64,000 bases of DNA from Patescibacteria group bacterium. GTDB taxonomy: Bacteria > Patescibacteriota > Minisyncoccia > Phycocordibacterales > SBAW01. The first letter of the stretch is position 1; every line of letters starts with the position of its first letter. A program made the translations under genes and the position numbers. The notes under the pieces were generated by a model. It was not told the DNA's origin. It saw nothing but the letters and a program-made list of their open reading frames with translations, and searched no databases. The stretch is from contig JAGWIT010000001.1 of NCBI GenBank assembly GCA_028866155.1, positions 165 through 64,164 on the forward strand. The letters are read 5' to 3'. Shown here piece after piece: positions 5,074 through 54,030 of this stretch.

Positions 5074-7383
5074 ATCTTTGTTTGTATCGAGAAACCCAAT
5101 CGGATAAACATAGGAAATAGGCGTCTCGTTGTAGGAGAGGTTATCTACTCCCCTGCGCACTACCGGAGATCCGACCAGCACATAGGAGCTCTTGCGGATC
5201 AGCCATGGATATACGCCTACCGATACATCAAGGTTATACAGAGCCGTCGAGCTCTGGATCGTTAATTCGCTGCTTTGGAGCTCCGGATGCAAGCCGTCTG
5301 CGATGTCCTTTTGCAGCTGACCGGTAACCCAAGACGTCGCTCGTTCGTCGCTGTGGTCCACGTAGTAGCGGTCGTAATACGAGCCGGAGTTGTTGAGGTA
5401 GAGCGGCGCATCGTAGCCGCCGGTAAGCTGAGCAATCGTGCCTGTGGATAAGAGGAAAAATAAGATTGCGACGATAGTTGCAAAAAGGGTTGCTTTTTTC
5501 TGCTCGGTAAAAAGCACGGCGCTCCCGATCGCCACAAAGAGCGACAGAAACAGGAGCGACTGCTGAAATGCACGCAGTAGTCCGTATTCGACCGAAAGCA
5601 CGGGCAAAACGACAATACCCGCGACCATCACTATACTGCCGCATGCGGCGAGCCAAAACTCCGAATGAATATTCGAGAGGACGCGCCGACTGCCCCGCAG
5701 CGCCGCGCAAAAACCGACGACGACCAAGAGTTGAAGTGCCTTTGCTGAGGATTGCTTCAGAATATAGTTCATTGACGAAACATCAAAACCAAGCGCGCTG
5801 AGCCCTGACCCGAGCGCCGTGAGCGGCATGACTTCCTGCGGCGCAAGGACGATGGGATAACTCTTATAGGCGCTTTGGGCAAAGTAATCGCCGGGGTCGG
5901 CTGCGCGCTGCGGAGCAACGACTTTTTGCTGATACCCGGCAAGGAGCTGCTGTGAGTTGAGCGGATGCCACGAAAAGAGCGCGTAGAGCACGTCGCTGGA
6001 TTGCGCATCCTCCTTACTGTTGCTGGCCATGGTCGCAAGGGTTTCTTTAACGACGCGGACAATGCTGTTTTGAGAGGTGTCGGTCAAGACGCTGCTCCAC
6101 AAAAAGCTCGCTAACATGAGCGAGACTACCATCAGCCCCGTGATGCGCGGCACGGCCGGCACCGCTGAAAGATTAAAGTCGGCAAAGGAGGTGCGTGCGA
6201 ACGGGGAGTAACTGCGCCGCTCAAAAAACCCGCGTACTGCGGAGAGTGCTTTTTGCATCAGGTAGACGAACACGAGAATCGCAATAACGGTATAGGTCGT
6301 CGAGTAATGCGAAAGCACCATGCCGATGCCAAAGAACATAAAGAGTCCGCGACGCAGGCGCATAGAGAGAGACTCTTCGAAGAGCACCAGGAACATGCAG
6401 GCAAGAAAAATAAACGCGATTTCTTGTCGATTGAGATACGGCATATCCATAAAAAATGTCGGAAACGCGACAAAATATACTGCCGATAAAAGCGCGAACG
6501 CCGGTGAGAGATAGCGGCGCACGGTGAGGTAGAGTGCGGGCGGCACGAACGCAAAAAATATTTGGTAAAGAACCTTATAGAGGTATGGGTCGGCCATCGA
6601 AAAGAACCTGGAGAGCGTGGCCGGTAAAATAGTGATGCTCATGCAGGCGTTGTAGGCATCCTGCAGATAGCCGACCGCCCAAAAACCGTGTTCTTTCGCC
6701 AGTTGAAAGACAAGATACTCGCGCTGTATGTCGTGGCCGCTGACATACCACCCGCGCAGACTGGTCATGAACAGGAGCGAAAGCGAAATAAAAAAAAGGG
6801 CAGTCGGTATCACCCACTCCTCGAGGGTTGCGCTGGCGCGCGCCAGCATCCACAGGTATAGTGCAATGCCCAAAAAGCACGCCAAGGTTATGAAGCCGCT
6901 ACCGCCGTTGTTGAGCGCGATGGCACCGGCAACGCTGCATGCCACAAACAATGCCGGACTGAACGCAAAGAGGCACTCTCGCCATGGAAGCGCGGTAAAC
7001 TCTATGCATATGGCGGCATCACCGCTGCGGATCCACGCGGCAAAGGCCAGCGCCACGACGCCAGCCGATACCTCTCCCAGCAGAAACGAAGCTTGAAGAG
7101 GCGTTGCAATACCGAGCGTCGACAGCAGTGTGTTGCCGGCAAGCCCTATGAACATCAACTCGAGTAGCGAGCAGGCGACCATGCATGCCAGCGCGCTCCA
7201 TACCGGCAATCGCACCCGAAGCGCCATGAGGGTAAGAAACCCCGGCAGGATGATGAGAGATATAAATGCCGCTATGTTTTGGATTTGAAAAGCATTGAAA
7301 TGAGTGTTCACCAGCAGGATAAAAAACGTCCACCATATGTCAAACAGCAGCAAAAAATAATCCTTTTTAAGCGTAAGCGTCAT
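5035..7383 (-). CDS. Large polytopic membrane protein (at least 14 TM helices plus a C-terminal extracytoplasmic domain); putative GT-C-type glycosyltransferase or polymerase
   Basis: 782-aa ORF: an N-terminal cluster of TM helices, a soluble loop, further TM helices, and a C-terminal soluble domain. Its start overlaps the stop of the GT4-GT4 gene (7380-7383). It sits in glycan-cluster context. Confidence 0.35.
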   Translation of the reverse strand: MTLTLKKDYFLLLFDIWWTFFILLVNTHFNAFQIQNIAAFISLIILPGFLTLMALRVRLPVWSALACMVACSLLELMFIGLAGNTLLSTLGIATPLQASFLLGEVSAGVVALAFAAWIRSGDAAICIEFTALPWRECLFAFSPALFVACSVAGAIALNNGGSGFITLACFLGIALYLWMLARASATLEEWVIPTALFFISLSLLFMTSLRGWYVSGHDIQREYLVFQLAKEHGFWAVGYLQDAYNACMSITILPATLSRFFSMADPYLYKVLYQIFFAFVPPALYLTVRRYLSPAFALLSAVYFVAFPTFFMDMPYLNRQEIAFIFLACMFLVLFEESLSMRLRRGLFMFFGIGMVLSHYSTTYTVIAILVFVYLMQKALSAVRGFFERRSYSPFARTSFADFNLSAVPAVPRITGLMVVSLMLASFLWSSVLTDTSQNSIVRVVKETLATMASNSKEDAQSSDVLYALFSWHPLNSQQLLAGYQQKVVAPQRAADPGDYFAQSAYKSYPIVLAPQEVMPLTALGSGLSALGFDVSSMNYILKQSSAKALQLLVVVGFCAALRGSRRVLSNIHSEFWLAACGSIVMVAGIVVLPVLSVEYGLLRAFQQSLLFLSLFVAIGSAVLFTEQKKATLFATIVAILFFLLSTGTIAQLTGGYDAPLYLNNSGSYYDRYYVDHSDERATSWVTGQLQKDIADGLHPELQSSELTIQSSTALYNLDVSVGVYPWLIRKSSYVLVGSPVVRRGVDNLSYNETPISYVYPIGFLDTNKDLLYDNGEARVYR

Positions 7384-9605
7384 ATGATGGTTTCGTAGGT
7401 TTGAAGCGTTGTCTTAAGAATGGCGCCCCAATCGTAGTTGCGCACATCCTCAATATTGTGGGCGCTTATCTGGGGATAGAGGCCTTTTTCGGTGACAAGC
7501 CGCATGATCGCCTTGCACATCGCACCAACGGAGAGAGGCGCGAGGAGACCGTTGCGCCCGTCTTGAATGACGTTGCGCGTGCCAACCACATTTGACGCCA
7601 CGATAGGCAATCCTTTAGCCATTGCCTCAAGCAAAACAGTGCTAAAGCCTTCCATGAGCGAAGCCAAGACGCATACGTCCGATTCTTCGTATATGGTTTC
7701 CAGATCTTTTCCGAGTTTTACGCCGACCAATCGAACCTGCGACTCAAGATTTTTCTTTCGGACAAGAGTCTCAAGCGCCTCGCGGTCGCCGCCGCCCACG
7801 ATAGTGAGGGTGAACGCTAGATTGTGAGTATGCTTTAACGCTTCTGCAACATCTATGAGGAACGGATAATTTTTTTGTACGGATATCCTGCCGACGGCGA
7901 GCAGGCGCAATGGCGCATGGCATGTGGAACACGGCTTTTCAAGGACAGCAAACGACGTCGCGTTCGGAATAACGACGATTTTTTCTTCAGAAATTCCAAA
8001 TTGGCCCACGAGGATATTTTTATAATCCGGTGTAAGTACAATTATTTTTGCTGCGCCGCCAAATACCCACCTCAACACAAAATGCGTATACAAAGGCAGC
8101 AATAGCTTCCCTATTCGTCCCGAGGGGATGATTAACATCCGCACGTGGGCAATATAGGGTATCCCTCGAATGCGCGCGACAGCGGCTGTGATTTCCGCAA
8201 AAAAAGCATGGGCGACATGCAGATGGATGAGGCTGTTTTTATTTAATCGGAACAGCTGCCATACGAGCCCCAAAGCAAGGGGGGTATGAAGAAACTCCAA
8301 GGCACGCAGATAGAAGACCTTTACGCCGTCTTGCAGATATAGACCGGCAGGAGTGCCGACGTTCGACGTTAAAACACTTATATCCAGGCCTGCTCTGACT
8401 TGCAATATTGCTAACTCTCGGATGCGTTGTTCCATCCCGCCTAGATGGGGCGGGTAATAGGCGCTCACATGTACGATGGCCATATAATTTCTTGAGAGAA
8501 CTGCGTCATAGCATTGCGCACGCTCCTCCCAAGAAAAATCTTTTAGAACCCGGGTACGCGCCGATGTGCCAAACGCCGCCGCGAGCCCTTGGTCTCTCAA
8601 AAGGAGGAGCAGCTTTTGCGCCAGCGCACGCTCATCGCCGGGCTCAATCAAAAAACCGGTCTCTCCTTCTTCAACCAAGTCGGGGATGCTCCCCACCCGC
8701 GTTGACACCACGGGCAAACTACAGCTCATCGCTTCAAGAATGGTGAGCGGGAAGTTGTCGTTGCCGGTCGGCAGGGCGAACACGTGCGCCTGATTGTAGC
8801 GTTTAACGAGCGCGCTGCCCGAAAGCCTCCCGGCAAACTCGGCGCGCCCGCCCAGCCCGAGATCCTGTGCTTCCCTTTCGTATTGTTCTCGCATATCGCC
8901 GTCTCCGACGATTATCACGCGCACGGTTGGAAGCAGGTTTGAAACTTCTTTGCACGCGCGCAAAAGAGTGCTCAAGCCCTTATACCGCTCGCCGCGGCCG
9001 AGCCCGCCCACAAACAAAATGGTCGGGTCTTTAGCTTTTGACGCTCCGTCCGGCATAAAGACGCTCGCGACCGCGGGCGTGATGATAGTGCTTTTGTGCT
9101 GATAGCGGTGCAGAAAATCGCGCCATATATACGCAGAGGTGCAAATAATCCGGTCGGCCCGGCGCAAAAGCAGGCGCAGAGGCCCGTGTTCATAGAGCCA
9201 TGCGATGATATCAGCTGCGAGAGCGCCCTTGCGCATGCTGCCGGCGTGGTAGGTGATGATGATATTGCGCGAGCCGGCGGCCAAAGCGGCGATGTCGCCA
9301 ATGCCCGGCACCGGCATGTGGATGTTGATGACATCCGGGTTCTCTTTTTCGAGTAATTTTCGGATCGCGCCAAACCATGCAAGCGAGACGGGCGTGTTGG
9401 ATATTTTAATCTGATACTTCAGCCGGTATATGCGCAAGCCGTCCCGCTCTTCTACCTCATCTTTCTCACCCGAGGTGAGAACCACCGCTCGCCAGCCGTG
9501 CTGTTTTGCGAGCCTCGTCGCAATTTCGGAGGCATAGCGCTCAAGGCCGCCGCCCTGCGGCGGCCAGTAGGGCGCGACGACGAGTATGGTGCGCCGGTCT
9601 TTCAT
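7380..9605 (-). CDS. Tandem glycosyltransferase family 4 (GT4-GT4) fusion protein
   Basis: Two complete GT-B/GT4 modules in one 741-aa ORF, each with the EX7E-type C-terminal motif (first module: ILEAMSCSLPVVST...GETGFLIE; second module: LLEAMAKGLPIVAS...GRNGLL). Confidence 0.7.
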   Translation of the reverse strand: MKDRRTILVVAPYWPPQGGGLERYASEIATRLAKQHGWRAVVLTSGEKDEVEERDGLRIYRLKYQIKISNTPVSLAWFGAIRKLLEKENPDVINIHMPVPGIGDIAALAAGSRNIIITYHAGSMRKGALAADIIAWLYEHGPLRLLLRRADRIICTSAYIWRDFLHRYQHKSTIITPAVASVFMPDGASKAKDPTILFVGGLGRGERYKGLSTLLRACKEVSNLLPTVRVIIVGDGDMREQYEREAQDLGLGGRAEFAGRLSGSALVKRYNQAHVFALPTGNDNFPLTILEAMSCSLPVVSTRVGSIPDLVEEGETGFLIEPGDERALAQKLLLLLRDQGLAAAFGTSARTRVLKDFSWEERAQCYDAVLSRNYMAIVHVSAYYPPHLGGMEQRIRELAILQVRAGLDISVLTSNVGTPAGLYLQDGVKVFYLRALEFLHTPLALGLVWQLFRLNKNSLIHLHVAHAFFAEITAAVARIRGIPYIAHVRMLIIPSGRIGKLLLPLYTHFVLRWVFGGAAKIIVLTPDYKNILVGQFGISEEKIVVIPNATSFAVLEKPCSTCHAPLRLLAVGRISVQKNYPFLIDVAEALKHTHNLAFTLTIVGGGDREALETLVRKKNLESQVRLVGVKLGKDLETIYEESDVCVLASLMEGFSTVLLEAMAKGLPIVASNVVGTRNVIQDGRNGLLAPLSVGAMCKAIMRLVTEKGLYPQISAHNIEDVRNYDWGAILKTTLQTYETII

Positions 9606-10289: not shown

Positions 10290-12137
10290 TCAGGCTAATG
10301 CACCCTCGAGGTTCTTGGCGACGGAGCCCCAGTCATACTGCTCGAGCGCGAGATTGGGCGTGAGGATATATTTCCCGCTTTTAATCTGGAGGATCTTTTG
10401 GGCGATGCTGTGTTCGTTCGGCTCGGCAAGAAAACCGTTGACCCCTTCGATAATAAGATCTTGGGCCGCATTGTCCGGATGCGATGTCGTGATAACCGGC
10501 AGGCCCGCGGCAAAGGCCTCTATCGCGACCAGCCCGAACCCTTCGCGTACCGAAGGCAGCACGAGCATGGTCGATGCCTTCATAAGGCTCCAAAGCTCGC
10601 GGTGGGTGCCCGCGCGCGCAAAAGAAACGTGCCGCTCCAAGCCGAGCGAGGATATGAGCTTTTCTATGCTCTGCTTTTGCGGCCCATCGCCCACTATCGT
10701 GCAGGTGATATCCGGCAGGGATTCTTTGACGACGGCAATCGCCTTTACCAACAGGTCGGCATGCTTATGCTCGAGCAGCCTCCCCACAAAAATAACGTCA
10801 CTGCGCTCCTCTCCTGCCTGTGCCGTGTATATATCGTCGAGATCAACGCCGAGCGGCACCGTGTGTATCTCTTTGGTCACGCCGGCGTTGAGGAGGCGGC
10901 GGGTCGTGTGCGCGGAGTTCGATACGATAACATCGGGCGTGCGCAGAGCCAGCCACTCAACAAGCGCGCCGCACCGGCCGACGAGCCCCGGCGCGTACTG
11001 TGCCCAATACTCGCCGCCCCACACCTCGTGCCACGTGCCGTAGAGCTTCTTCCTTTTAATCCACGTCACGATGCGCGCGCTAAAGAGCGGAAAAAACGGC
11101 ATGTGGTCGACATCAAGCACATCGAAGCTCACAAACAGGAGCTTCAGCGTCGCTGCGCCGAACATCAGCGCTTGCCTCAGCGAACGGCGCTCGCCGCTAT
11201 AAAGCGGATAATATCTGCACAGCGCGTGCAACATGACTCCGTCTCGCACAATCGTCTTGGGCCCGTCCCACCACCGCATCGTATAGATGTGCACCTCGCG
11301 TGCGGGGCCGGCCAGCCTTTTTGAAATCTCATAGAGCCTTTTTTCCTTCCCGCCGTTGAAGTACGGCATGACTGAGTCCGACACAAACGCCACGCGCCGC
11401 GGCGCTGCGGGTGCCTCTAACGGCTTCCACCGAATATTGCGCGCGAACATCAGCAGAATGCGGCCGCCGTCGTACAACGGCCGCAGAGACGAGCTCCCCT
11501 TACGCGGCGCGTAGCTTATCGGCACCGAGCAGATATCTTCGCCGAGGCGCGCCATCTTGGTTATCATCTCCATCTCGATGGCAAACCCTTCTGAGGTAAG
11601 GTGCGGACGCAATCGCAGAGCCGCCTCGCGACTCCAGGCAAAGTAACCGGTGAGCACGTCGGTGACGTTGACGCGATAAAAATAGCGCACGAGGTGCGAG
11701 TATATCCAGTTGCCGAGGCGGTTGAGCCACGCCATCGAGCCTTCTTGTATCTTGCCGCCGAGGCGCGAGCCGACCACCACGCTGCTGAACCCGGAGGAAA
11801 GCGGCTCGACCATCCGCACGATCTCGCGCGAGGCATACGTGTCATCGCCGTCGAGCATCACGATATAGTCGCACTCCGGCGGTATCGAGCTCATCGCCCG
11901 CCGTATCGCGTGGCCTTTGCCTTGCCGCGGCTCGTGCACCACCTGCGCGCCGCATTCGCGGGCGATTTGCGCCGTCTTGTCGGTGCTGTTGTTGTCAATC
12001 ACCATAACCGAGAGCTCATACCCGTATTGCTGCAGCTTCTCGCGCGGGAAAGAGCGGATAACGTCGGCGATGCCTTTTTCTTCGTTATAACAAGGGATGA
12101 AGGCGACTATCTTCTCGGTTTTTGGTTTGGAGGCCAT
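10290..12137 (-). CDS. GT2 (Dpm1-like family 2 glycosyltransferase) fused to GT4 glycosyltransferase
   Basis: N-terminal FIPCYNEE...MLDGDD (GT2 DXD) and C-terminal EGFGLVAIEAFAAGLPVI...EGVNGFL (GT4). The true start is taken as ATG 12137 (MASKPKTEK). The upstream 84 codons of the listed ORF are a probable artefact. Confidence 0.65.
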   Translation of the reverse strand: MASKPKTEKIVAFIPCYNEEKGIADVIRSFPREKLQQYGYELSVMVIDNNSTDKTAQIARECGAQVVHEPRQGKGHAIRRAMSSIPPECDYIVMLDGDDTYASREIVRMVEPLSSGFSSVVVGSRLGGKIQEGSMAWLNRLGNWIYSHLVRYFYRVNVTDVLTGYFAWSREAALRLRPHLTSEGFAIEMEMITKMARLGEDICSVPISYAPRKGSSSLRPLYDGGRILLMFARNIRWKPLEAPAAPRRVAFVSDSVMPYFNGGKEKRLYEISKRLAGPAREVHIYTMRWWDGPKTIVRDGVMLHALCRYYPLYSGERRSLRQALMFGAATLKLLFVSFDVLDVDHMPFFPLFSARIVTWIKRKKLYGTWHEVWGGEYWAQYAPGLVGRCGALVEWLALRTPDVIVSNSAHTTRRLLNAGVTKEIHTVPLGVDLDDIYTAQAGEERSDVIFVGRLLEHKHADLLVKAIAVVKESLPDITCTIVGDGPQKQSIEKLISSLGLERHVSFARAGTHRELWSLMKASTMLVLPSVREGFGLVAIEAFAAGLPVITTSHPDNAAQDLIIEGVNGFLAEPNEHSIAQKILQIKSGKYILTPNLALEQYDWGSVAKNLEGALA

Positions 12138-12144
12138 ATCAGAT

Positions 12145-12612
12145 TTAAGACCCGGCGGAAAAATGGATGGAAAGGCCCTGCTCCGGCAGGCCCACGACAA
12201 CCACAGATGCGGCGCGCACGACGGGGAGCGTCTCTTGCATCGAAGCGGAGCCGTTGTCCTCAAGCGAGACTGTGCCCGAGTCGATGATGCGCGAGCCGCC
12301 CTGCGACTCCAGAAGCACCGTATATGGATAATCGACGCGGCGGCCCTCCAGATTGTGTATCGTAAATGAAAACGGCGCCGCACTTTCAAGCGAAGCCTTC
12401 GGCAGTATCCCGGTAAAATACAGCTCGGTGAGCGGCTCGTTTTGCGGGGTCAGGTTGAGCTCTGCGAGCACGCGCTCAACCGGCTGATAGATAAAAAAAA
12501 CCAATGCCGCGGCAAGGCACAGCGCGAGCACTGCAGCGAAAAAAGCATATTGGCGGAGGATAGCCATAGCAGTGAAGCACCAACATCTTACCGAAATGCG
12601 CCGCTCTTTCAA
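12145..12612 (-). CDS. Membrane-anchored hypothetical protein (first gene of the glycan operon)
   Basis: ORF with an N-terminal TM helix. It ends 7 nt before the GT2-GT4 start. The start may be the internal ATG (MAILRQ) at about 12567. Confidence 0.35.
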   Translation of the reverse strand: MKERRISVRCWCFTAMAILRQYAFFAAVLALCLAAALVFFIYQPVERVLAELNLTPQNEPLTELYFTGILPKASLESAAPFSFTIHNLEGRRVDYPYTVLLESQGGSRIIDSGTVSLEDNGSASMQETLPVVRAASVVVVGLPEQGLSIHFSAGS

Positions 12613-26871: not shown

Positions 26872-33750
<6,879 letters not shown>

Positions 33751-38317: not shown

Positions 38318-40573
38318 TTACTTCGCGACTGCCAGCGCCTCGTCAAATTTGACTGATAACAGTTTTGAGACGCCGTCTTGGCCCATCGTGACGCCGTAGA
38401 GGATGCCCGCGCGGCTCATCGTCTCGCGGTTGTGCGTGATAACAATAAGCTGGCTGTGCTGTGCGAGCGTCTCAACCATGTCGCCGTAGCGGCGCGAGTT
38501 GGCTTCGTCGAGCGCCGCGTCGGTCTCGTCAAGAATAAGAAACGGCGGCGGGTTGACCTGCGACATCGCGAAGATGAGCGCTATTGAGGTGAGCGCACGC
38601 TCGCCGCCCGAGAGCATGTGGAGCCCTTTAACACGCTTGTGCGGGAGCGAGATAGTGATATCGACGCCTTCTTCAACTTCGATATCTTCTTCATCCGCTT
38701 CTTCATCTTTGAGCTCCGCTGCGTCCGCCGAAACCTTGGAGTAGGAGGAACGCAGTTTTTTTTCTTTGACGGTCTGCAGCATTGCCGAGCCGCCACCGAA
38801 CATAAGCTTGAAGAATTTGTCGAACTCGCCGTTTATTTTGCCTATCCCGTCGACAAAGCGCAGTTCGAGCGTCTTGGTGAGTTCGGCTATAAGCGCGCGC
38901 AACTGCTCGGCCGAGTCGTTGAGGTCGGCAAGCTCGCAGCTCAGAAACTGGTCGCGCTCGCTCGTTTCTTTAAACTCTTTGAGCACCTCGGTGTGATTGC
39001 CGGTGCCTACCTCCTCGAGCTTGATGATAAGCCGCTGCAATTTGCGGCGGCGCTCTTCCTGCACTTGGCGGTCTTCGTCGGCGATGTCCGCATCAGACAC
39101 CGCTTCCCCGCTGTTGTTGCGAACGACAGGCGAGTCATAGTCTATTGCCGCGCCGGCGAGCGCGCTTGCCTCACCGAGTTCGCGCTTAAAGTTCTCCTCC
39201 TCGCGGCTCAGAAGCTCCTCGCGGCCCTTCAGCGACGCGAGCACCGCCTCAAGTTCGCTGCGCCGGCTCATTGCGGCAAACAACTCGCGCTCGGCGTCGC
39301 GCGAGGCGTCCTTCTCGCTCTCGATGCTACGGCGCAGAGCTTCGGTAGCTTTGCGCACGCGCTCTTCCTGTGCCCCAAGTTCGTGCATTTCTTTTTCAAG
39401 CGCGGATTTTTTGGCGGCTAGAGCGCCTTTGTTATTTTCAGCCCTATCTTCCGGGCGGCTCTGGATCCGGCGCATGAACTCCTTCGCCAAAATCACGAGC
39501 GCGTTCAGCTTGGTTTTGAGCCGCTCTATTTCGCTCAAGGCAAGAGTCTGCTCCAGTTCACTTAATACTCGTTCGGCAAACGTGCGCGCCTCTTCCGCAG
39601 GGATGCTTTCCTCAACCGCGCCGCTCAAGCGCTCAAGCGCCCTCAGCTCGCCTTCGATACGGCCCAATTCGCGCGATATCTCATCGCGCCGCATGCGCAG
39701 GTTGCGGCCCTCTTCCTCAAGCCGCATAAGCTCCTGCGTGCCGGCGTCCTTGCCGTGCGTTTTGGCAAGCTCGTCGCGCAAGTGCTTTATTTTGTGCTCG
39801 AGTTCTTGATGGAGGCGTGCGGGCTCGTCGCGCTCATCGACGAGCAATGCGGCCGTGATGCGCAGATACACGCTCTCGCGTTTTAAATATTCGGCGTATT
39901 TTTGGGCCACGTCATCGCGCAGAGCGTGCGACTCCTCTATCTTTTTGACCTGCGCCTGCAAGAATTTTAGATGGGGAGTAAGCTCACGGCGAGAGACCTC
40001 GACCTCGCGCATATTCTCCCCCGTCTTCTCGAGCTTTCGCTCGGCCTCTTCTCTTTTATACAAATAGGCGGTCAGTCCGAGCGCGTCTTCTATCATCTCG
40101 CGGCGCTCGATGAGCGTCGCGGTCAAAACGCGGTCGGCCTCGCCCTGCGAGATGATGTGGTGCCCGCTTGCTCCGATATTTGCCTGGCTCAAAAGCTCGG
40201 CGATATCGCGCAGGCGCACCACCGAGCCGTTGAGCATATATTCATTGATGCCGCTGCGGTGCACCACGCGCTCGAGCGACACTTCGTCAAAGTCCAAGTT
40301 CAATGCGCGATCGCTGTTGTCAAACACAAGCTTCACCGAAGCGCGGCCCGCCCGTGGCGAGGCGGCCGAACCATTCCAAATCAAATCCTCGCCACGCTTG
40401 CCGCGCATAGACTTCATCGACTGCTCGCCGAGCACAAAGCGGAAGCTCTCGGCAATATTTGATTTGCCCGAGCCGTTGGGCCCCACCACCGAGGTAATAG
40501 CCGAGCCAAACTCCAACTGAGTCTTTTTGGCAAAGGATTTAAACCCCGCAAGTTCGATGCTTTTGAGCCGCAT
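38318..40573 (-). CDS. smc: SMC-family chromosome segregation ATPase, short form (751 aa)
   Basis: N-terminal Walker A (GPNGSGKSNI), a long coiled coil, and the C-terminal signature LSGGERALTSIALIFAM...LILDETDAALD. Confidence 0.65.
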   Translation of the reverse strand: MRLKSIELAGFKSFAKKTQLEFGSAITSVVGPNGSGKSNIAESFRFVLGEQSMKSMRGKRGEDLIWNGSAASPRAGRASVKLVFDNSDRALNLDFDEVSLERVVHRSGINEYMLNGSVVRLRDIAELLSQANIGASGHHIISQGEADRVLTATLIERREMIEDALGLTAYLYKREEAERKLEKTGENMREVEVSRRELTPHLKFLQAQVKKIEESHALRDDVAQKYAEYLKRESVYLRITAALLVDERDEPARLHQELEHKIKHLRDELAKTHGKDAGTQELMRLEEEGRNLRMRRDEISRELGRIEGELRALERLSGAVEESIPAEEARTFAERVLSELEQTLALSEIERLKTKLNALVILAKEFMRRIQSRPEDRAENNKGALAAKKSALEKEMHELGAQEERVRKATEALRRSIESEKDASRDAERELFAAMSRRSELEAVLASLKGREELLSREEENFKRELGEASALAGAAIDYDSPVVRNNSGEAVSDADIADEDRQVQEERRRKLQRLIIKLEEVGTGNHTEVLKEFKETSERDQFLSCELADLNDSAEQLRALIAELTKTLELRFVDGIGKINGEFDKFFKLMFGGGSAMLQTVKEKKLRSSYSKVSADAAELKDEEADEEDIEVEEGVDITISLPHKRVKGLHMLSGGERALTSIALIFAMSQVNPPPFLILDETDAALDEANSRRYGDMVETLAQHSQLIVITHNRETMSRAGILYGVTMGQDGVSKLLSVKFDEALAVAK

Positions 40574-46946: not shown

Positions 46947-48173
46947 ATGGAGGAGCGCGACCACAAGAAGCTGGGCCCCGAACTTGAGCTTTTTTATATT
47001 GATCAGACAGTCGGTAAAGGGCTGCCTATGTTTTTACCTAAGGGCGCAACGCTCAAGCGCGAGCTCGAACGGTTTGTGATAGAAGAAGAGCTCAAGCGCG
47101 GCTATCTCCATGTGCATACGCCCGACCTGGCAAAGCTCGAACTATACGAAAAAAGCGGTCACTACCCTCACTACAAAGATTCGATGTACGCGCCTATTGA
47201 AATAGACGACGAGAAGTACATGCTGCGCCCGATGACCTGTCCGCATCATTTTCAGCTTTATCTCTCCAAACCACACAGCTATCGCGAACTTCCCATGCGT
47301 ATCGCAGAGCTCGCGCAACTCTACCGTTATGAGCAATCGGGCGAGCTTATGGGCCTGCAGCGGGTACGCACCTTTTGCCTTGCGGACGCCCATATTATCT
47401 GTGCCGACGAAGAGCAAGCGGCCGACGAGGTAAGCAATGCGCTCGATCTTATCGAACACATGGCCGGCGTCTTTGGTCTCAAGCTAGAAGCAGACTACCG
47501 TTTCCGCCTCTCACTCGGCGACCGCGCCAATACCGAAAAATATTATAAAAATGACGCAGCGTGGGAAAAGAGCGAGGGACTGTTGCGCGAGGTTATGCAA
47601 AAGCGCGGCGAAAAGTTTGAAGAAGCAAAGGATGAAGCCGCATTTTATGGGCCCAAGATTGACGTGCAGATGAAGAATGTTAACGGCAAAGAAGACACGG
47701 CCTTTACCGTTCAATATGACTTTTGCATGCCCGACCGCTTCAATCTCACCTACGTGGGCGAAGACGGCAAAGATCATCGCGCCTTTGTCGTGCATCGCTC
47801 TTCAATAGGCGCCATCGAACGCATCATGGCTTTTCTTATCGAGAAGTATGCGGGCGCGTTCCCTCTTTGGCTCTCGCCAGTGCAGGCGCGCATACTCCCG
47901 ATTGCCGGCACGCATAAAGATTTTGCTCAAAATGTTTTAAGTCAATTCAAACAGGCCGGCATCCGAGCCGAGCTCGACGAGAGCAACGAGACGCTCGGCA
48001 AAAAGATACGCGAGGCCAAAACGCAAAAGATCCCCTATATGCTGGTCATTGGCGACCAAGAAGTGGCCTACAAAACCGCGACACTCGAGAGCCGCGATAA
48101 AGGCAAAATCGGGACGCTTTCAATAGACGAAATCGTTTCAAAGTTGAATGAAGAAATAAAGGCACGGGTATAA
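46947..48173 (+). CDS. thrS: Threonyl-tRNA synthetase, catalytic core plus anticodon-binding domain only (N-terminal TGS/editing domains absent)
   Basis: The protein starts at the ThrRS core motif (RDHKKLG, class II motifs) and runs through the anticodon-binding domain. At 408 aa it is about 230 aa shorter than canonical ThrRS at the N-terminus. Confidence 0.75.
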   Translation: MEERDHKKLGPELELFYIDQTVGKGLPMFLPKGATLKRELERFVIEEELKRGYLHVHTPDLAKLELYEKSGHYPHYKDSMYAPIEIDDEKYMLRPMTCPHHFQLYLSKPHSYRELPMRIAELAQLYRYEQSGELMGLQRVRTFCLADAHIICADEEQAADEVSNALDLIEHMAGVFGLKLEADYRFRLSLGDRANTEKYYKNDAAWEKSEGLLREVMQKRGEKFEEAKDEAAFYGPKIDVQMKNVNGKEDTAFTVQYDFCMPDRFNLTYVGEDGKDHRAFVVHRSSIGAIERIMAFLIEKYAGAFPLWLSPVQARILPIAGTHKDFAQNVLSQFKQAGIRAELDESNETLGKKIREAKTQKIPYMLVIGDQEVAYKTATLESRDKGKIGTLSIDEIVSKLNEEIKARV

Positions 48174-48258: not shown

Positions 48259-49254
48259 TTAAGCCGTTCGGCTTCTAGGGCGGTTTATCTGCGAGAGAAT
48301 AAAATCATCTATCACATCCTCCTGTGTCGATTGAATCGGTGCGCTTACTTGCACCGCAGACGGGTTAAGGATGGCCGCTATCTGTTGGGCGAGCGCGTTA
48401 ATGTCGAGTGCGGCTTGCGAAGGCGAACCTTGCTGGACGCGAACGCCGACGGAGTCTGCGACGGAGGGTGAGCGGGAAGCAAGGTTCGCCGAAGCATTGC
48501 CGAAAAGAAAGTTCTTCATCGCGCGGAAGATGCGATTTTGCACGCGCTTGACGACGATGAGGTAGGCTGCGGCGAGGCACCAGAGGATAAGGAATCCCCA
48601 GTACGCTATCGTGCCCCAAAAGCCGAGGTCAAGACCGGTGTACGGCACCGCCGAGAGCGAGACATACGGAGTGCTGTTGTAAGCAATGGGCTGAGGGCAC
48701 ACCGGATAGCCGATACAGCCGCACGTGTTGCAGACCGGGGTCGGATTATTATAAACGACCGGCGGATTATTGTAGATGACAGGCTGGGGTGCCGGGTTGG
48801 TGACAGTAGTAACCGTCGTCGGCGAGCTCACCGTCGTGTTGCAGCTGTTGATCGCAGTGCACGAGTTGCCGTTGTCGATGACATTGGTGTTGACGTTGGT
48901 ATTTGAAGGAAGGTAAGAAGAACCGAGATATCCGCCGCCCATGAGATATCCGCCGCCGAGATACGAGCTGGTCATGTAGCCTGAGGAGCCCAAGTAATCG
49001 GAGGAGTATGAAGAGGGGTAATAATCCATGGAGCCGTAGTTGGCGGGATAATAATCCATGGAGCCATAGCTGGTTGGATAGTAATCCATGGAGCCATAGT
49101 CGGTGGTAGTGGGATAATAATCCATGGAGCCATAGTTACCGAAATCGTCCGCATGAGCAGGAGCGGCAGCGAAGGCGAGCGGGAGTATCATCAAAATTGC
49201 CGCCATAGAAGCGATACCGAGATTGCGAGACATAATTTTACTAAGCGTATTCAT
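48259..49254 (-). CDS. Surface protein with four YGSMDYYP tandem repeats, a Ser/Thr/Asn-rich region, a Cys-rich segment, a VPYTG motif before a TM helix, and a 94-aa cytoplasmic tail
   Basis: Signal peptide. Repeats at aa 41-80. The stretch AVPYTGLDLGFWGTIAYWGFLILWCLAAAYLIVVKR resembles a sortase sorting signal. SD GGAG and a TTGACA-17-TACAAG promoter lie upstream. Confidence 0.55.
   Translation of the reverse strand: MNTLSKIMSRNLGIASMAAILMILPLAFAAAPAHADDFGNYGSMDYYPTTTDYGSMDYYPTSYGSMDYYPANYGSMDYYPSSYSSDYLGSSGYMTSSYLGGGYLMGGGYLGSSYLPSNTNVNTNVIDNGNSCTAINSCNTTVSSPTTVTTVTNPAPQPVIYNNPPVVYNNPTPVCNTCGCIGYPVCPQPIAYNSTPYVSLSAVPYTGLDLGFWGTIAYWGFLILWCLAAAYLIVVKRVQNRIFRAMKNFLFGNASANLASRSPSVADSVGVRVQQGSPSQAALDINALAQQIAAILNPSAVQVSAPIQSTQEDVIDDFILSQINRPRSRTA
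49015..49134 (-). repeat. Four ~30-bp in-frame tandem repeats encoding YGSMDYYP
   Basis: Repeated CCATGGAGCCATAG(T/C)... units are visible on the plus strand at 49020-49140. Confidence 0.7.
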
Positions 49255-49428: not shown

Positions 49429-50082
49429 TCACCGGCAGTCGGATGCGCAACGGACGCCACCGTTGCCTATCGGCCAGCACTTGTTGGTGCGGACCAGTTG
49501 CCGGGGTGGCAGACACTCGGCTGCCCTGTTCACCCGGACGAGATCATAATCTCGCCCGTGGCTGCGAACTTGGAGCGAACCGGCCGACACGTTATCGAAC
49601 GTGTCGGAACGGGGCGGCACGCCCTTGCCGTATGCCGGAGGCGGACGATAGTATGCCTGCTGTCTGCCTTCAACTGGCGCGGCTGATGGCGCAACTGCCA
49701 CCTTCGGGCAGGTTTCCATCTGCTTTTGGAAACCCTCGGCGGTCATGCCGTCGAGCTTCCTTGCTGCTTCATCCGCCAACTGTGGCGACCAGGAACCCCT
49801 ACAAACGGAGGTGAATTCTCTCCACCTCTGTGACCCCACCGCATATTCTCCCGACTTGGGCTCGGCTGCGGAGCGGGCTTGAGGCGCCGACTGAGCCGCG
49901 AGCTGTTCTTTCAGCTCCTTTATTTGCTGCTCAAGCGCCGCGATTTTTGGGGCGACTCTGGCGTCGACACGCTTGTCGACGCCAGACTGTATCGCATGAC
50001 CCTCTTTAATAGGGTCATGCGTCTGCGCCATAGCCGCCGAAGCGGACATGCCACAAACGAGGAGAGCGGCGAACTTCCACAT
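49429..50082 (-). CDS. Secreted hypothetical protein with coiled-coil segment
   Basis: The start is taken at the internal ATG 50082 (MWKFAALLVCGMSASAAMA signal peptide), preceded by the SD AGAGGA. The island promoter motif lies upstream. Confidence 0.4.
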   Translation of the reverse strand: MWKFAALLVCGMSASAAMAQTHDPIKEGHAIQSGVDKRVDARVAPKIAALEQQIKELKEQLAAQSAPQARSAAEPKSGEYAVGSQRWREFTSVCRGSWSPQLADEAARKLDGMTAEGFQKQMETCPKVAVAPSAAPVEGRQQAYYRPPPAYGKGVPPRSDTFDNVSAGSLQVRSHGRDYDLVRVNRAAECLPPRQLVRTNKCWPIGNGGVRCASDCR

Positions 50083-50312
50083 TGTTTTTATCCTCTGTGT
50101 ATTTGTGAAGACCTGCCCCTTAGTCAGTCCGCCAAGGGGCGGCAAAGGGTTTGTGATTCAATCTTACACTACCTAGGGCATTTTGTCAATACCCTTTCGT
50201 GAAAACCCGATTTTGGCCTTATGCAAAGCCCTAATCGGGAAATAACGAATACGAACAAAAAAAATATGGAGGGCAGGCGATGTTTAGCACATCGCCTGCC
50301 GACCATGGAACC

Positions 50313-51359
50313 CTACTTGTCGCCAGCGATGGCGTCGCGGAGATCTGCATAGTAGGAATCCGGCACGGGGGTGTTGACCTTCTTGTCCACGGCATCGGCT
50401 CTGTCGTTGAGACTGCGGATGTCAGACTTCAGGCCATCAACCGACTGAGTGATGCTATCGACGCTCCCCTTCAACTCTTTCGTCGACTCCTGTATTACCT
50501 CAGCAAGCTTGCTGATGTCATCGGGAGTAACCGAGGGAGTCGTAGTCTCGACTTTTGTCATTTGTTGCTGCTGCTTGCCGTCCTGCGTTTTTGGTGAAAT
50601 GCTGTACCACTGAAGCCCCAGTGCCACAACCAAGATTACACAGGCCACAACAGCAATACGCCCAGAGCCAACCTTGGGACTTTGAATCCGCGGGGCAGCC
50701 GAAGCGCGCCTGCGCGCGCGCCAGCTTTGAAGGCGTTCGCGCATACTTCGAAACAGCCACGAAACGCCGCGGCCGAGCTTGACCGCACCGTTTCGAAAGC
50801 GCTCGAACCAGCTCGGTTTAATGGCAATCTCGTCGGGCTTTTTCGGCCGAATCGTCCCGATATCCTCCATTTTCAACTTTTGGATTTCATCCTTGACCGA
50901 ACGCATTTCGGCAATTACGCCTTTAAATTGGTCGGCCAACAAGATAAGCACCCCGTTGAGATGTTTGTTCTCGTCGGAAAAAAGCGCCGCAATCCGCACA
51001 TCGAGCTTGCGGAAAAGTTGTTCGTGAAGTTCTTCTTCGTACTTGAGGATGTCCTTCCAATGCGTGGTTGGATCCTCCAGATAGATCTTGAGCGCGTCAA
51101 TGATGCTGGCGAGCCTTTCGACTTCACCTCTGAGTTCACTGATCGTCTTTTCGACCCTCTGAGTTTGGGCCTGTCGCTCATAAATCTCGACCTGGTTTAT
51201 AGCCTTAGAGATGTCAGCCTTGATCTCGGGGACGTGGTTTTTAAATGGCGACTCGGCGTATGGGCCTTTCGGCTCGCCCGCTTTATTCACCTGCCGCCAC
51301 GAACCATTTTTATCTTGCGCGACGCGCTGACCATGGGCGTTGATATGAATCTTAGCCAT
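50313..51359 (-). CDS. Coiled-coil membrane protein (single mid-protein TM helix), hypothetical
   Basis: N-terminal ~230 aa are coiled-coil-rich, then a TM helix (RIAVVACVILVVALGL), then a ~100-aa C-terminal domain. SD AAGGAAG. Confidence 0.4.
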   Translation of the reverse strand: MAKIHINAHGQRVAQDKNGSWRQVNKAGEPKGPYAESPFKNHVPEIKADISKAINQVEIYERQAQTQRVEKTISELRGEVERLASIIDALKIYLEDPTTHWKDILKYEEELHEQLFRKLDVRIAALFSDENKHLNGVLILLADQFKGVIAEMRSVKDEIQKLKMEDIGTIRPKKPDEIAIKPSWFERFRNGAVKLGRGVSWLFRSMRERLQSWRARRRASAAPRIQSPKVGSGRIAVVACVILVVALGLQWYSISPKTQDGKQQQQMTKVETTTPSVTPDDISKLAEVIQESTKELKGSVDSITQSVDGLKSDIRSLNDRADAVDKKVNTPVPDSYYADLRDAIAGDK

Positions 51360-51570: not shown

Positions 51571-52125
51571 TTAGTGACCTTTGATGGGAAGATCGCCCCA
51601 ACGTGCCCCGAAGCTCACGCCTGTCTTAACGATAACCGTTTGGTTGAGTGCTCCCTCGGTGAACTGCTCTTGCTCGGTCGGCCAACGTTGTGCCTCCGGC
51701 CACTCAAGCGCTTTGAGAGCTAGTTGTGGATCGGGCCAGGCAGTATGTTTGGGCGCTTCTTTCTTTGTCTCCTCTTTTGGGGGCATTGGCAAAGCCGCCG
51801 TCTGTTTTACCGCTTGAGGAGGCTGAGTCTTTTGCATTTGCTGCGACTTTTCTGCAGCCTCGTTGACCGCCACACAGTGCTCGGCCACGCCCGAAATCAC
51901 ATGGTCGAGCGTTCCCCAAGAACTCGCAAGGAATGCGTAGATGAGAGAGTCGGGATACTGTTTGTCTGGCTGGCAGCGGTGTATGGCTGCATACCGTTTG
52001 CCATACGCAAACGACCAGTCATGTTTTTGCTGGATGGTCAACGTCTCCCAGGTCTGTTGATCCATCGCCGACGCAGTTGCCGCCGCCGCAAAAAACAGTA
52101 GTACAACAAGCATGAGATTTTTCAT
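51571..52125 (-). CDS. Secreted hypothetical protein
   Basis: The start is taken at the internal ATG (MKNLMLVVLLFFAAAATASA signal peptide). The upstream 57 codons of the listed ORF are a probable artefact. Confidence 0.4.
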   Translation of the reverse strand: MKNLMLVVLLFFAAAATASAMDQQTWETLTIQQKHDWSFAYGKRYAAIHRCQPDKQYPDSLIYAFLASSWGTLDHVISGVAEHCVAVNEAAEKSQQMQKTQPPQAVKQTAALPMPPKEETKKEAPKHTAWPDPQLALKALEWPEAQRWPTEQEQFTEGALNQTVIVKTGVSFGARWGDLPIKGH

Positions 52126-52214
52126 CTCGTACTCCTCCTTTCTGCTTCCTGTGTTGTGAAGAACTACCTCTTTTTGCAGAGGCATAGCCGCGCGCCCCTC
52201 GAAGTAAATAGGAT

Positions 52215-52856
52215 TTACCTCGGGACGAGCGAGTATGCCCCTACAAAGTCGGCTGAGACGACGAACCGGTTGGTCTTGTCGGCGAACGAGTCGCACGTCG
52301 AGAGCACGAGGTGTCTGCCATCCGTCGGAAGTTCTACCACATCCTCGGTGGCATCGGCAACCCTCACGCCAACGACGCTGTAGCGATACTCGGTGGTGTC
52401 CGAGTAAACGCTCACGATGTCGCCGGTCTTGAGATTCTGGATGCCGTCGAAGGTTTTGTAGTACTGGTGATAGACAATAGGCAGGTAGGACGAATGGCCG
52501 AAGAGATACACCGTGCCGTCAACGCCAAGAAGCGATGAAGTCGGGTAGCGCACCGCTCCCTGCGTGAGCGCATCGTCCAAAATGCCGGCATCGGTCGACA
52601 CCGGATTTTGTACCGCGACATCCAGACCGATCGACTTGGCAACCACGCGGACAGGGTTCTCGGGTTGGTCGGCTGCGGCAGGCGTGTTGGTGGTTTGCGG
52701 CGCGTTCGCCGAGTCCGTAGAGTTAAGCGGGTTTGGAGTTGCACCCACCGCCGCCAGAAACGCGGATGTGCCGACGAACATGAGTAAAAACACCGCCGCA
52801 AAGGCAAACGGGTGTTCAGAAATGTGGAAGATGGCTCCTTGGCCGGGGCGCTCCAT
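52215..52856 (-). CDS. Sortase-family transpeptidase (membrane-anchored)
   Basis: N-terminal TM anchor. The His region is LFGHSS. The catalytic TLxTC-type motif is HLVLSTCDSF. A conserved Arg is present (NRFVVSADFVG). Confidence 0.7.
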   Translation of the reverse strand: MERPGQGAIFHISEHPFAFAAVFLLMFVGTSAFLAAVGATPNPLNSTDSANAPQTTNTPAAADQPENPVRVVAKSIGLDVAVQNPVSTDAGILDDALTQGAVRYPTSSLLGVDGTVYLFGHSSYLPIVYHQYYKTFDGIQNLKTGDIVSVYSDTTEYRYSVVGVRVADATEDVVELPTDGRHLVLSTCDSFADKTNRFVVSADFVGAYSLVPR

Positions 52857-52944: not shown

Positions 52945-54030
52945 ATGGTAGCTTTGCGCCGTATGGAAACACAAGAGAAGCCCTCCGTGTGGGACATATT
53001 TCTCCGGACTATTGCGGTCTTGGGGCTCATCGCCGTCTTATTGCTCGGCGCATGGGGCATTATCCAACTTGCAGTCTCGCTCCCCTCTGTTTTCGGCGGC
53101 ATCGGCAACAGCGTTTCGTCGCTCTTCAGCGGCGGCGCTCACAAAGAGACGCTCGCGGTCTCGGCGCCTTCGAGCGCCGCCTCAAGCCAGCAGATTACCG
53201 TGTCATGGACGCACCAAAACGGCAACGGTGATTATGCATACTCTCTCTCTTACGCCTGCCAAAACGGACTCTCGCTTAAGGCGCCCCTCCCCACCGGCAG
53301 CTACCAAACTATCGCCTGCAACACGCCGTTTAATTTCGTGAATGCAAGCGCACACATGATTGTCATCCCGGTGGCGAGCGTCTCGCAACCTGTCCCGCTC
53401 ACGCTCACCGTTACGGCAACACAGCTCTCGACCGGAGCAATCACTACGACCGGTTCGGCGACGACCAACATCACCGGCACCGCGACGCAGCCGAAGACCA
53501 GCGCCTACACCTCGCCCGCTCCGACCATGTCATACCAGCCGGCTCCGGTGCGCGCGACGCTCTACGGCTACCCCGACCTCGCGGTCCGCTATGTCGGCGT
53601 CGTGCCGCAAGGCGGTCTCACCGCGCTTCAGTTTAGCGTCGAGAACAACGGCACCAACGTGACGCCCGCGGGCTGGACATTTAACGCACAGCTGCCGGTT
53701 AACGGCGGATACACGTTCGTGAGCCAGCCGCAGCAGGCGCTCTATCCGGGCGACAAGATCCTCTACACATTGAGCTTCCAAACGCCGAGCCAATATCAAA
53801 CCGGCTATCCGTACGGGTACACCTCAAACGGATATGGCTATACGGGACAAGGCAGCTATGCCTGCAGCGGCTATATCCCCTGCATACCGCCGACGCAGTA
53901 CGGATATCCGTATCAAAATTATGGATACGGCTACACCGGCAGCGTAACGATAATGGTTGACCCGTACAACTACATCCCAGAGCTCAACAAAATAAACAAC
54001 CGACTCACGGTCCCCCTCTCGGTGTACTAA
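52945..54030 (+). CDS. Membrane-anchored surface protein with a Thr-rich region and a C-terminal CARDB-like domain
   Basis: N-terminal TM helix, TGTATQ/TTTG low complexity, and a C-terminal GSVTIMVDPYNYIPELNKINN motif resembling CARDB domains. Confidence 0.4.
   Translation: MVALRRMETQEKPSVWDIFLRTIAVLGLIAVLLLGAWGIIQLAVSLPSVFGGIGNSVSSLFSGGAHKETLAVSAPSSAASSQQITVSWTHQNGNGDYAYSLSYACQNGLSLKAPLPTGSYQTIACNTPFNFVNASAHMIVIPVASVSQPVPLTLTVTATQLSTGAITTTGSATTNITGTATQPKTSAYTSPAPTMSYQPAPVRATLYGYPDLAVRYVGVVPQGGLTALQFSVENNGTNVTPAGWTFNAQLPVNGGYTFVSQPQQALYPGDKILYTLSFQTPSQYQTGYPYGYTSNGYGYTGQGSYACSGYIPCIPPTQYGYPYQNYGYGYTGSVTIMVDPYNYIPELNKINNRLTVPLSVY

Follow-up and report, generated by a model that had tools for sequence, protein, structure and literature searches.

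A conserved PYTG module encoded beside a sortase in Patescibacteria: a candidate sorting signal with a long cytoplasmic tail

The window analysed here, a stretch of 64,000 nucleotides from a Patescibacteria group bacterium, encodes a tandem-repeat protein in which the pentapeptide VPYTG lies in front of a hydrophobic helix and a basic pair, and in which a long tail follows. The question raised by this locus is whether the pentapeptide belongs to a genuine sorting signal, cleaved by a sortase, or whether the protein simply remains in the membrane. The features named in the original prediction, namely the repeats, a Cys motif, VPYTG, the hydrophobic helix, KR and a tail of 94 residues, are all present where they had been placed (Table 1). 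The open reading frame begins with ATG. An identical protein has been deposited as a hypothetical protein from a Patescibacteria metagenome-assembled genome (MAG), and a protein homology search returned more than 200 homologues besides. Among Pfam and NCBIfam families no match was obtained at E values up to 10, a chance match to TraW_N aside, and the curated sorting-signal and LPXTG-type models of NCBIfam and Pfam recognised neither this protein nor the short-tailed paralogues described below. A scan for promoters and terminators was set aside, its counts differing little from those of shuffled sequence. The window also encodes a short threonyl-tRNA synthetase (ThrRS) of 408 aa, DnaE, GyrB and a fused RpoB-RpoC, and resembles a small CPR genome.

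On balance, we lean towards reading the protein as a dedicated sortase substrate, with a new type of signal and, in membrane and cytoplasm, a remnant whose degree of conservation is unusual. The gene product would probably be the secreted precursor of a cell-envelope protein of a Paceibacteria-type (Adlerbacteria/Kaiserbacteria-like) Patescibacterium.

Table 1. Coordinates of the PYTG protein, its parts and the two neighbouring genes of the cluster
Feature	Position in window	Strand	Description	Basis
Whole gene	48259..49254	-	ORF for a precursor of 331 aa, with signal peptide, disordered ectodomain, PYTG module and a tail in the cytoplasm	
Signal peptide	49150..49254	-	Sec-type, residues 1-35, AHA end before DD	Kyte-Doolittle, AlphaFold2
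YGSMDYYP repeats	49015..49134	-	Four exact repeats, residues 41-80, within Tyr/Gly/Ser-rich segment	Tandem Repeats Finder and sequence inspection
Remainder of ectodomain	48685..49014	-	Residues 81-190: GGYL-type Tyr/Gly/Ser-rich, Asn/Thr-rich and Pro-rich segments	Alignment, AlphaFold2
Sorting-type module	48544..48684	-	Residues 191-237: AYNSTPYVSLSAVPYTGLDLG, membrane helix FWGTIAYWGFLILWCLAAAYLIVV, KR	Conservation, AlphaFold2
VPYTG pentapeptide	48634..48648	-	Residues 203-207, proposed T206/G207 sortase cleavage site	Sequence; putative cleavage
Cytoplasmic tail	48262..48543	-	Residues 238-331: VQNRIFRAMKNFLFG helix extension, variable linker, C-terminal DVIDDFILSQINR	Alignment, AlphaFold2
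Cluster sortase	52215..52856	-	213 aa, N-terminal membrane anchor, proposed processing enzyme	Pfam Sortase, E = 2e-17
CARDB-like membrane protein	52945..54030	+	Divergently transcribed, conserved N-terminal helix, Tyr/Gly-rich insert	Weak CARDB match, stronger in orthologues

A Sec signal peptide, the first element expected of a sortase substrate, is found at the N-terminus of the precursor. Kyte-Doolittle windows exceed 1.6 at residues 10-35, AlphaFold2 places the signal-peptide helix at residues 4-27, and in alignments of 26 and 109 sequences the signal peptide is conserved, with A35 almost invariant. The mature ectodomain (residues 36-206) contains 25 Tyr, 23 Ser, 19 Thr, 18 Pro, 17 Gly, 17 Asn, 9 Asp and 6 Cys, and not a single Lys, Arg, Glu or His. 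A similar bias was observed family-wide, the passengers containing 12.7% Tyr and less than 1% each of Lys (0.9%), Arg and Glu. Two Cys-containing elements were located: the motif CNTCGCIGYPVCP (residues 175-187) in the Pro-rich segment, and a second pair, CTAINSC (residues 132-138), in the Asn/Thr-rich segment; an NTCT..NSCNT element is semi-conserved in the family alignments. The AlphaFold2 model, based on 109 sequences, has a mean pLDDT of 55.8, with values below 50 over most of residues 29-193, and the protein is accordingly modelled with one membrane helix that carries a disordered ectodomain. Such a composition (Asp/Tyr-rich, free of Lys and Arg, disordered) would be in keeping with a polymer that is embedded in the wall or binds a ligand.

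The four YGSMDYYP copies occupy residues 41-48, 53-60, 63-70 and 73-80, and were reported by Tandem Repeats Finder at 49015-49136 (period 30, 3.8 copies, score 152). At the DNA level the four 24-nt units are identical at 20 to 24 of 24 positions and differ only by synonymous, third-position changes, which indicates that the YGSMDYYP peptide itself is maintained. This peptide was unique to the present genome among 222 relatives inspected; 142 of 209 relatives carry exact tandem repeats of their own on an Asp/Tyr/Ser/Thr/Gly/Pro theme (e.g., SYDYSYPD, DYGYGDYY and NYYPDT), and repeat type and number vary widely between them. Judged from these sequences, the repeats are the variable part of the protein and not the signature of the family.

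The original prediction had also proposed that variation in repeat number could give phase-variable adhesins, expression being switched by gain or loss of units. A near-perfect tandem repeat is indeed present, and the differences in repeat sequence and number between relatives indicate that the region evolves quickly. However, the units measure 30-36 nt and lie in frame inside the ORF, so that slippage would alter the length of the protein but neither its reading frame nor its expression, and the synonymous differences between units would lower the slippage rate. With units that are in frame and non-identical in DNA, and no frame-shifting unit, phase variation by repeat number is not supported, and an expression-switched adhesin appears very improbable.

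Part of the evidence for a sorting signal comes from the region that follows the repeats. After VPYTG the sequence continues with LDLG, a hydrophobic segment of 24 residues (212-235) and K236-R237, beyond which lie exactly 94 residues more; the pentapeptide, of xPxTG type, is thus separated from the hydrophobic segment by a gap of four residues. The net charge changes from -1 in front of the helix to +5 over the 15 residues that follow it. The membrane helix has a pLDDT of about 90, and the confident AlphaFold2 helix spans residues 212-251. The conserved core combines PYvsLSxVPYTGL[D/E]LG with the helix, with K[K/R]VQN behind it and, at the C-terminus, with DxFIxSQINR; it is shared by more than 200 hypothetical proteins from Paceibacteria-type Patescibacteria. 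Ten positions are invariant in 109 sequences (P196, L200, P204, Y205, T206, G207, L210, Y218, A230 and Y231), and in 119 of 120 proteins K[K/R] follows PYTG at a spacing of 28 residues. The mean frequency of the commonest residue is 0.41 in the repeat region, rises to 0.96 in PYTGLDLG and amounts to 0.76 in the membrane helix; further on it is 0.64 for KRVQN..FLFG, 0.15 for the tail linker and 0.75 for the last 13 residues, which hold DxFIxSQINR. Variation within the pentapeptide is confined to its first position, which accepts hydrophobic or small residues (Val in 180 proteins, Ala in 20, Thr in 12, Ile in 5, Leu in 4 and Met in 1), P-Y-T-G being invariant; that P, T and G are fixed, and that LPYTG is among the variants, is as in sortase motifs and argues for a sortase substrate.

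The module is also portable, as would be expected of a sorting signal. According to HMM and hhalign comparisons (99.6%), the same module ends proteins whose passengers are very dissimilar, among them repeats of the D/Y, CPxGTxGTYPNC and Ig-like kinds. When 1.84 billion representative proteins were searched with a profile built from the last 140 residues, 761 were retrieved at E < 1e-3 and 113 at E < 1e-30. Among the more than 200 homologues, those with a named source come exclusively from MAGs of Patescibacteria, Paceibacteria, Adlerbacteria or Kaiserbacteria.

An enzyme that could act on such a signal is encoded 3 kb upstream on the same strand. H121, C188 and R197 of this sortase are invariant in an alignment of 35 homologues, so the catalytic residues are intact. 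Its nearest sequence in the PDB is 2kw8 (E = 3e-8), and its scores against the NCBIfam class models were 32-33 bits for class D (cut-offs 140-165), 29 for class E (160) and 18 for class C (160); by sequence it is a sortase-fold enzyme that fits none of the curated class models. The 120 homologues listed are 57-100% identical to it, and all those with a named source derive from Patescibacteria/Paceibacteria-type MAGs.

To place the pair in its genomic context, 81 distinct module-bearing loci were examined, with about 10 kb read on either side of each. A same-strand sortase was found 7 bp to 6.8 kb from the PYTG gene in 67 of these; in the remaining 14 the available upstream DNA was 1,951 bp or less, so that a sortase is present in all 67 loci with enough upstream DNA. 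It lies upstream of the long-tail gene in 61 loci and 7-83 bp downstream in six rearranged loci, which may go back to one single event. Homologues of the CARDB-like protein were found in 61 loci, and its helix, LR.IAv.GLIA.LLLGAWGIIQLAF, is conserved in 63 sequences. No family recurs in the island apart from the PYTG proteins, the sortase and the CARDB-like protein; the small secreted or coiled-coil proteins encoded between the PYTG and sortase genes of the window (49429..50145, 50313..51359 and 51571..52296) are not conserved. The order gyrB, CARDB-like gene, sortase gene, PYTG gene, thrS and dnaE was syntenic in every locus seen, and the more divergent loci reached through a sister family (see below) retain the same gyrB to dnaE block. 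Since the whole block is syntenic, and linkage to thrS is equally strong, linkage to the sortase is by itself weak evidence. A scan of 3050 locus ORFs for xPx[T/S][G/A/N/S] followed by a hydrophobic and a basic stretch adds to the argument: PYTG was the sole recurrent pattern (94 cases), all others occurring once or twice. An intact sortase linked to the PYTG gene, with no other candidate substrate motif nearby, points to the PYTG proteins as its substrates.

Clustering of a sortase with its candidate substrates, here one to three PYTG proteins per cluster, is also a trait of pilus sortases, and a polymerising enzyme might in that case link the ectodomains head to tail as a fibre instead of fixing them to the wall. 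The pilin chemistry based on Lys isopeptide bonds is unavailable to an ectodomain devoid of lysine, and the scarcity of this residue extends to the passengers of the family. In addition, no Ig-like pilin fold is predicted for the 331-aa protein, whose ectodomain is mostly modelled with very low confidence, and the class C model scored far below its cut-off. A pilus-type assembly is therefore considered improbable.

The main difficulty for a sorting signal is the tail. Where such a signal should end the protein with a short, positively charged tail, 94 residues follow KR, and the caveat in the original prediction, that the protein may be bitopic, was well placed: the C-terminal motif, DVIDDFILSQINR (residues 313-325, nt 48280-48318), is as conserved as the membrane helix. 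D316, F318 and Q322 are invariant in the alignments, and two short helices are modelled in the tail by AlphaFold2. In a sister family occupying the same locus position, the cytoplasmic tail runs to about 270 residues and closes with a helical domain that is well folded in the model (pLDDT above 90); for the proteins of this family, Pfam and NCBIfam yielded nothing usable. Passenger-less members of this family (290-340 aa) proved to be gene-caller truncations, the full ORFs encoding 712-743 aa with Ig-like repeats. The resemblance by eye between DVIDDFILSQINR and TIDDIVKGLSR of the sister family is not taken as homology, as an HMM of the motif gave no such match and shuffled controls scored equally.

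Paralogues with a short tail provide a counterpart to this architecture. In 15 of the 81 loci the same cluster encodes a PYTG protein that ends about 10-30 residues past the basic pair, as at L066 3-1142 (...IPYTGVDLG-helix-KRGFSPRA) and L004 11695-12633; their passengers consist of Gly-rich or CPxGTxGTYPNC repeats. The layout of these paralogues is that of the textbook sorting signal (PMC4617865), which argues for the sortase-substrate reading. Taken with the position of VPYTG outside the hydrophobic segment, the sortase in the cluster and the LPYTG variants, they support the sortase-like signal that had been predicted; VPYTG is placed outside the membrane and not within it, and the homologues do show the features of sortase substrates. 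Stand-alone ORFs made up of helix and tail were also encountered, two of them apparently real (L064 6759-7052, which begins 17 bp past the sortase gene, and L061 399-782). A third (L039 2340-2633) was discarded as an artefact or pseudogene, having a frameshift inside PYTG.

These observations have to be weighed against a second reading, in which the protein is an uncleaved type I single-pass membrane protein. It would serve as a permanent tether or receptor with a disordered ectodomain, PYTGLDLG being a juxtamembrane structural element, the helix packing with that of the CARDB-like protein, with the sortase or with both, and the cytoplasmic motif binding an intracellular partner; the sortase would be a neighbour through synteny only, or its substrates would be limited to the short-tailed paralogues. 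The strong conservation of both helix and C-terminal motif fits such a protein, as do the folded tail domain of the sister family, the stand-alone helix-plus-tail ORFs and the synteny of the block with housekeeping genes. The membrane helix of the CARDB-like partner is unusually conserved too, suggesting helix-helix packing in a complex. Left unexplained, however, are the xPxTG pentapeptide at the position of a sortase motif, with its LPYTG variants, the paralogues that end just past the basic residues, and the lack of any other candidate substrate near a catalytically intact sortase; moreover, in the window and in most loci the long-tail protein is the sole PYTG protein beside the sortase. 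We regard permanent retention in the membrane as plausible, though less likely than cleavage.

Under the preferred reading as a sortase substrate, the signal peptide would be removed after AHA35, and an ectodomain of 171 residues, acidic, without Lys or Arg, rich in Tyr, Ser, Thr, Gly, Asn and Pro, and predicted to be disordered, would come to lie outside the cell. The helix 212-235 would anchor the precursor in the membrane, with K236-R237 and the tail inside. The conserved SLSAVPYTGLDLG, together with the helix and K[K/R], would mark the protein, as a sorting signal particular to this lineage, for the membrane-anchored sortase of the cluster, a role to which the order of signal peptide, xPxTG, hydrophobic segment and KR, with its charge asymmetry, lends weight. 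This enzyme would cut between T206 and G207, hand the ectodomain on to an acceptor in the cell wall (a peptidoglycan precursor is the likeliest candidate) and leave behind a membrane and cytoplasmic remnant of 125 residues (G207-A331). The remnant probably has a role of its own, because both the helix and the C-terminal DxFIxSQINR motif are conserved; it may, for instance, dock to the sortase or to the CARDB-like partner, or report on processing. What the sequences themselves display is the gene with its topology features and conservation, a sortase with intact catalytic residues, the linkage of the two genes and the existence of short-tailed paralogues; cleavage, the acceptor and any function of the remnant we infer.

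Sorting signals are normally discarded. Against a sortase substrate stand the 94-residue tail, whose last 13 residues are conserved to the level of the helix, the folded cytoplasmic domain of the sister family, and the stand-alone helix-plus-tail ORFs, which could not be substrates. The conservation of GL[D/E]LG, of a YW pair and of much of the helix also goes far beyond that of known sortase signals and suggests specific packing of the helix. The substrate and membrane-protein views would agree if the remnant left by cleavage were functional, for which the C-peptide of Streptococcus gordonii and the protein SafA (see below) are precedents. A more speculative proposal, and an unlikely one in its full form, extends this idea: the PYTG module, instead of being a disposable signal, would make up half of an ancient envelope device that Paceibacteria build from three genes (for the CARDB-like protein, the sortase and the PYTG protein). 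Cleavage would then both furnish the wall with a disordered Tyr-rich polymer and leave a conserved cytoplasmic peptide, anchored in the membrane, to act inside the cell. In this device the remnant could, e.g., report surface assembly or couple it to a cytoplasmic process, and that of the sister family could be the tail of about 270 residues with a clamp-loader-collar-like helical domain at its end.

The sorting signal of Gram-positive sortase substrates consists of the LPXTG motif, a stretch of hydrophobic residues and a small number of positive ones (PMC4617865). The PYTG proteins share with these substrates the signal peptide, an xPxTG motif outside the hydrophobic segment, the basic residues, a nearby sortase with His, Cys and Arg, and varied passengers. 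In contrast to LPXTG, the pentapeptide reads [V/A/T/I/L/M]-P-Y-T-G, its Tyr and the GL[D/E]LG extension being invariant; sequence conservation extends to the membrane helix, the long tail ends in a conserved motif, and cleavage is putative. The locus can also be compared with dedicated systems. Specialised sortases are encoded beside their substrates in class B, C and D systems, and the PYTG cluster resembles these in having one sortase next to one to three proteins that share a distinctive motif, a motif not found on other proteins among the locus ORFs. It departs from them in the scores of its sortase (18-33 bits against class-model cut-offs of 140-165) and in being embedded in a housekeeping block (gyrB, thrS and dnaE). 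We know of no counterpart of the conserved CARDB-like membrane protein in sortase operons.

A precedent for a remnant with a biological role has been described in Streptococcus gordonii, where the membrane-retained C-peptide of sortase A substrates is sensed by the SGO_1180 two-component system (summarised in PMC11326707). A role of this kind could explain the conservation of G207-A331, although the S. gordonii remnant is a short generic peptide, whereas that of the PYTG protein would comprise 125 residues, a conserved cytoplasmic motif among them, and the PYTG cluster lacks a sensor kinase. The stand-alone helix-plus-tail ORFs, such as the one at L064, recall SafA, a small single-pass membrane protein that binds sortase and is encoded beside the sortase gene (PMC9282373), in that they too are small single-pass proteins adjoining such a gene. 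They differ from it in that no FPW motif of the SafA type was noted by eye, and the PYTG module as a rule forms part of a protein with a secreted passenger. Finally, tripartite C-terminal sorting domains with a dedicated enzyme are known from GlyGly-CTERM and rhombosortase (PMC3237569) and from MYXO-CTERM and myxosortase (PMC11980579). The PYTG module has in common with both a signature motif, a membrane helix and a basic cluster, restriction to a lineage, recognition by an HMM and a single paired enzyme. The enzyme is in this case a sortase-fold cysteine transpeptidase, in contrast to the intramembrane proteases of the other two systems, and the substrates, with their long tail, number one to three per genome instead of many.

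Searches of the literature with VPYTG, with PYTG and sortase, and with Patescibacteria, CPR or Parcubacteria and sortase retrieved no prior description of a substrate motif, and a preprint on CPR pili mentions sortase only in passing. Neither the [V/A/T/I/L/M]PYTGL[D/E]LG signal with its conserved helix and K[K/R]VQN, nor its long conserved tail, nor the unclassified sortase, nor the three-gene cluster has a description in Pfam, in NCBIfam or in the literature that could be searched.

How the CPR envelope is formed, and what structure it has, is still unclear according to one paper (PMC5220378), and a sortase is encoded in more than half of CPR genomes (PMC6744442). For this large uncultured clade, the locus offers a candidate enzyme-substrate pair, made up of a 213-aa sortase and a 13-residue peptide, SLSAVPYTGLDLG. 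The PYTG signal can be recognised by an HMM and could serve to annotate about 760 representative proteins that are now labelled hypothetical. The three-gene device, if true, would be a case of a sortase used for the regulated separation of an ectodomain from an endodomain, which has not been described before. If cleavage does take place, the conserved remnant raises the question of whether the remnants of sorting signals may carry a function of their own.

The PYTG module (conserved PYTG, membrane helix and basic pair) is also found at the end of proteins built of many tandem CPxGTxGTYPNC units, encoded at three related loci, with about 30 units, counted by eye, in L054. These units appear to be small repeats resembling disulfide loops, for which no family match was found in Pfam or NCBIfam. 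At two further loci, small ORFs comprise only the conserved helix and tail with its C-terminal motif and lack a passenger, the variable extracellular part; one of the two starts 17 bp past the sortase stop codon. These ORFs recall sortase-associated small membrane proteins.

In the sister family, which occupies the same locus position, the public gene calls at the more divergent loci L083 and L085 are too short (290-340 aa); the full ORFs encode 743 and 712 aa, respectively, and the low-complexity passenger region is overlaid by gene calls on the opposite strand.

Coordinates of the features discussed (positions refer to the window or to the locus indicated)
Feature	Sequence	Coordinates	Strand	Remark
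GT4+GT4 fusion	window	7380..9605	-	
GT2+GT4 fusion	window	10290..12389	-	
Fused RNA polymerase beta-beta' subunit	window	26872..33750	-	one 2292-aa ORF
SMC_N protein	window	38318..40573	-	
Threonyl-tRNA synthetase	window	46947..48173	+	408 aa
Intervening gene	window	49429..50145	-	
Intervening gene	window	50313..51359	-	
Intervening gene	window	51571..52296	-	
CARDB-like membrane protein	window	52945..54030	+	divergent from sortase gene
CPxGTxGTYPNC-repeat protein	L054	11894-14224		PYTG module
CPxGTxGTYPNC-repeat protein	L066	2594-4846		PYTG module
CPxGTxGTYPNC-repeat protein	L037	12012-12995		PYTG module
Helix-plus-tail ORF	L064	6759-7052		97 aa
Helix-plus-tail ORF	L061	399-782		127 aa
Sister-family gene call	L083	8001-8873		
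Sister-family gene call	L085	8001-9023		
Threonyl-tRNA synthetase	L084	9583-11385		600 aa

In the window, a single ORF runs through the complete set of RpoB domains (residues 19-1047) and then through that of RpoC (residues 1066-2170), encoding a fused beta-beta' RNA polymerase subunit. The threonyl-tRNA synthetase of the window consists of catalytic and anticodon-binding domains only, without editing or N-terminal domains; the enzyme at the orthologous position in L084, a more divergent relative, has a tRNA_SAD match. The window also encodes an unusually short SMC_N protein (only 751 aa) and two multi-domain glycosyltransferase fusions.

The membrane helix at the N-terminus of the CARDB-like protein (LR.IAv.GLIA.LLLGAWGIIQLAF) is conserved in 63 genomes, and in the window the CARDB-like domain of this protein contains a Tyr/Gly-rich insert of its own. 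The protein may partner either the PYTG protein or the sortase in the membrane. Between the sortase and PYTG genes lie three genes, two of which likely encode secreted proteins and one a coiled-coil protein that has a membrane helix in its middle. Because their homologues are almost absent from the other 80 loci, this slot of the cluster turns over fast.
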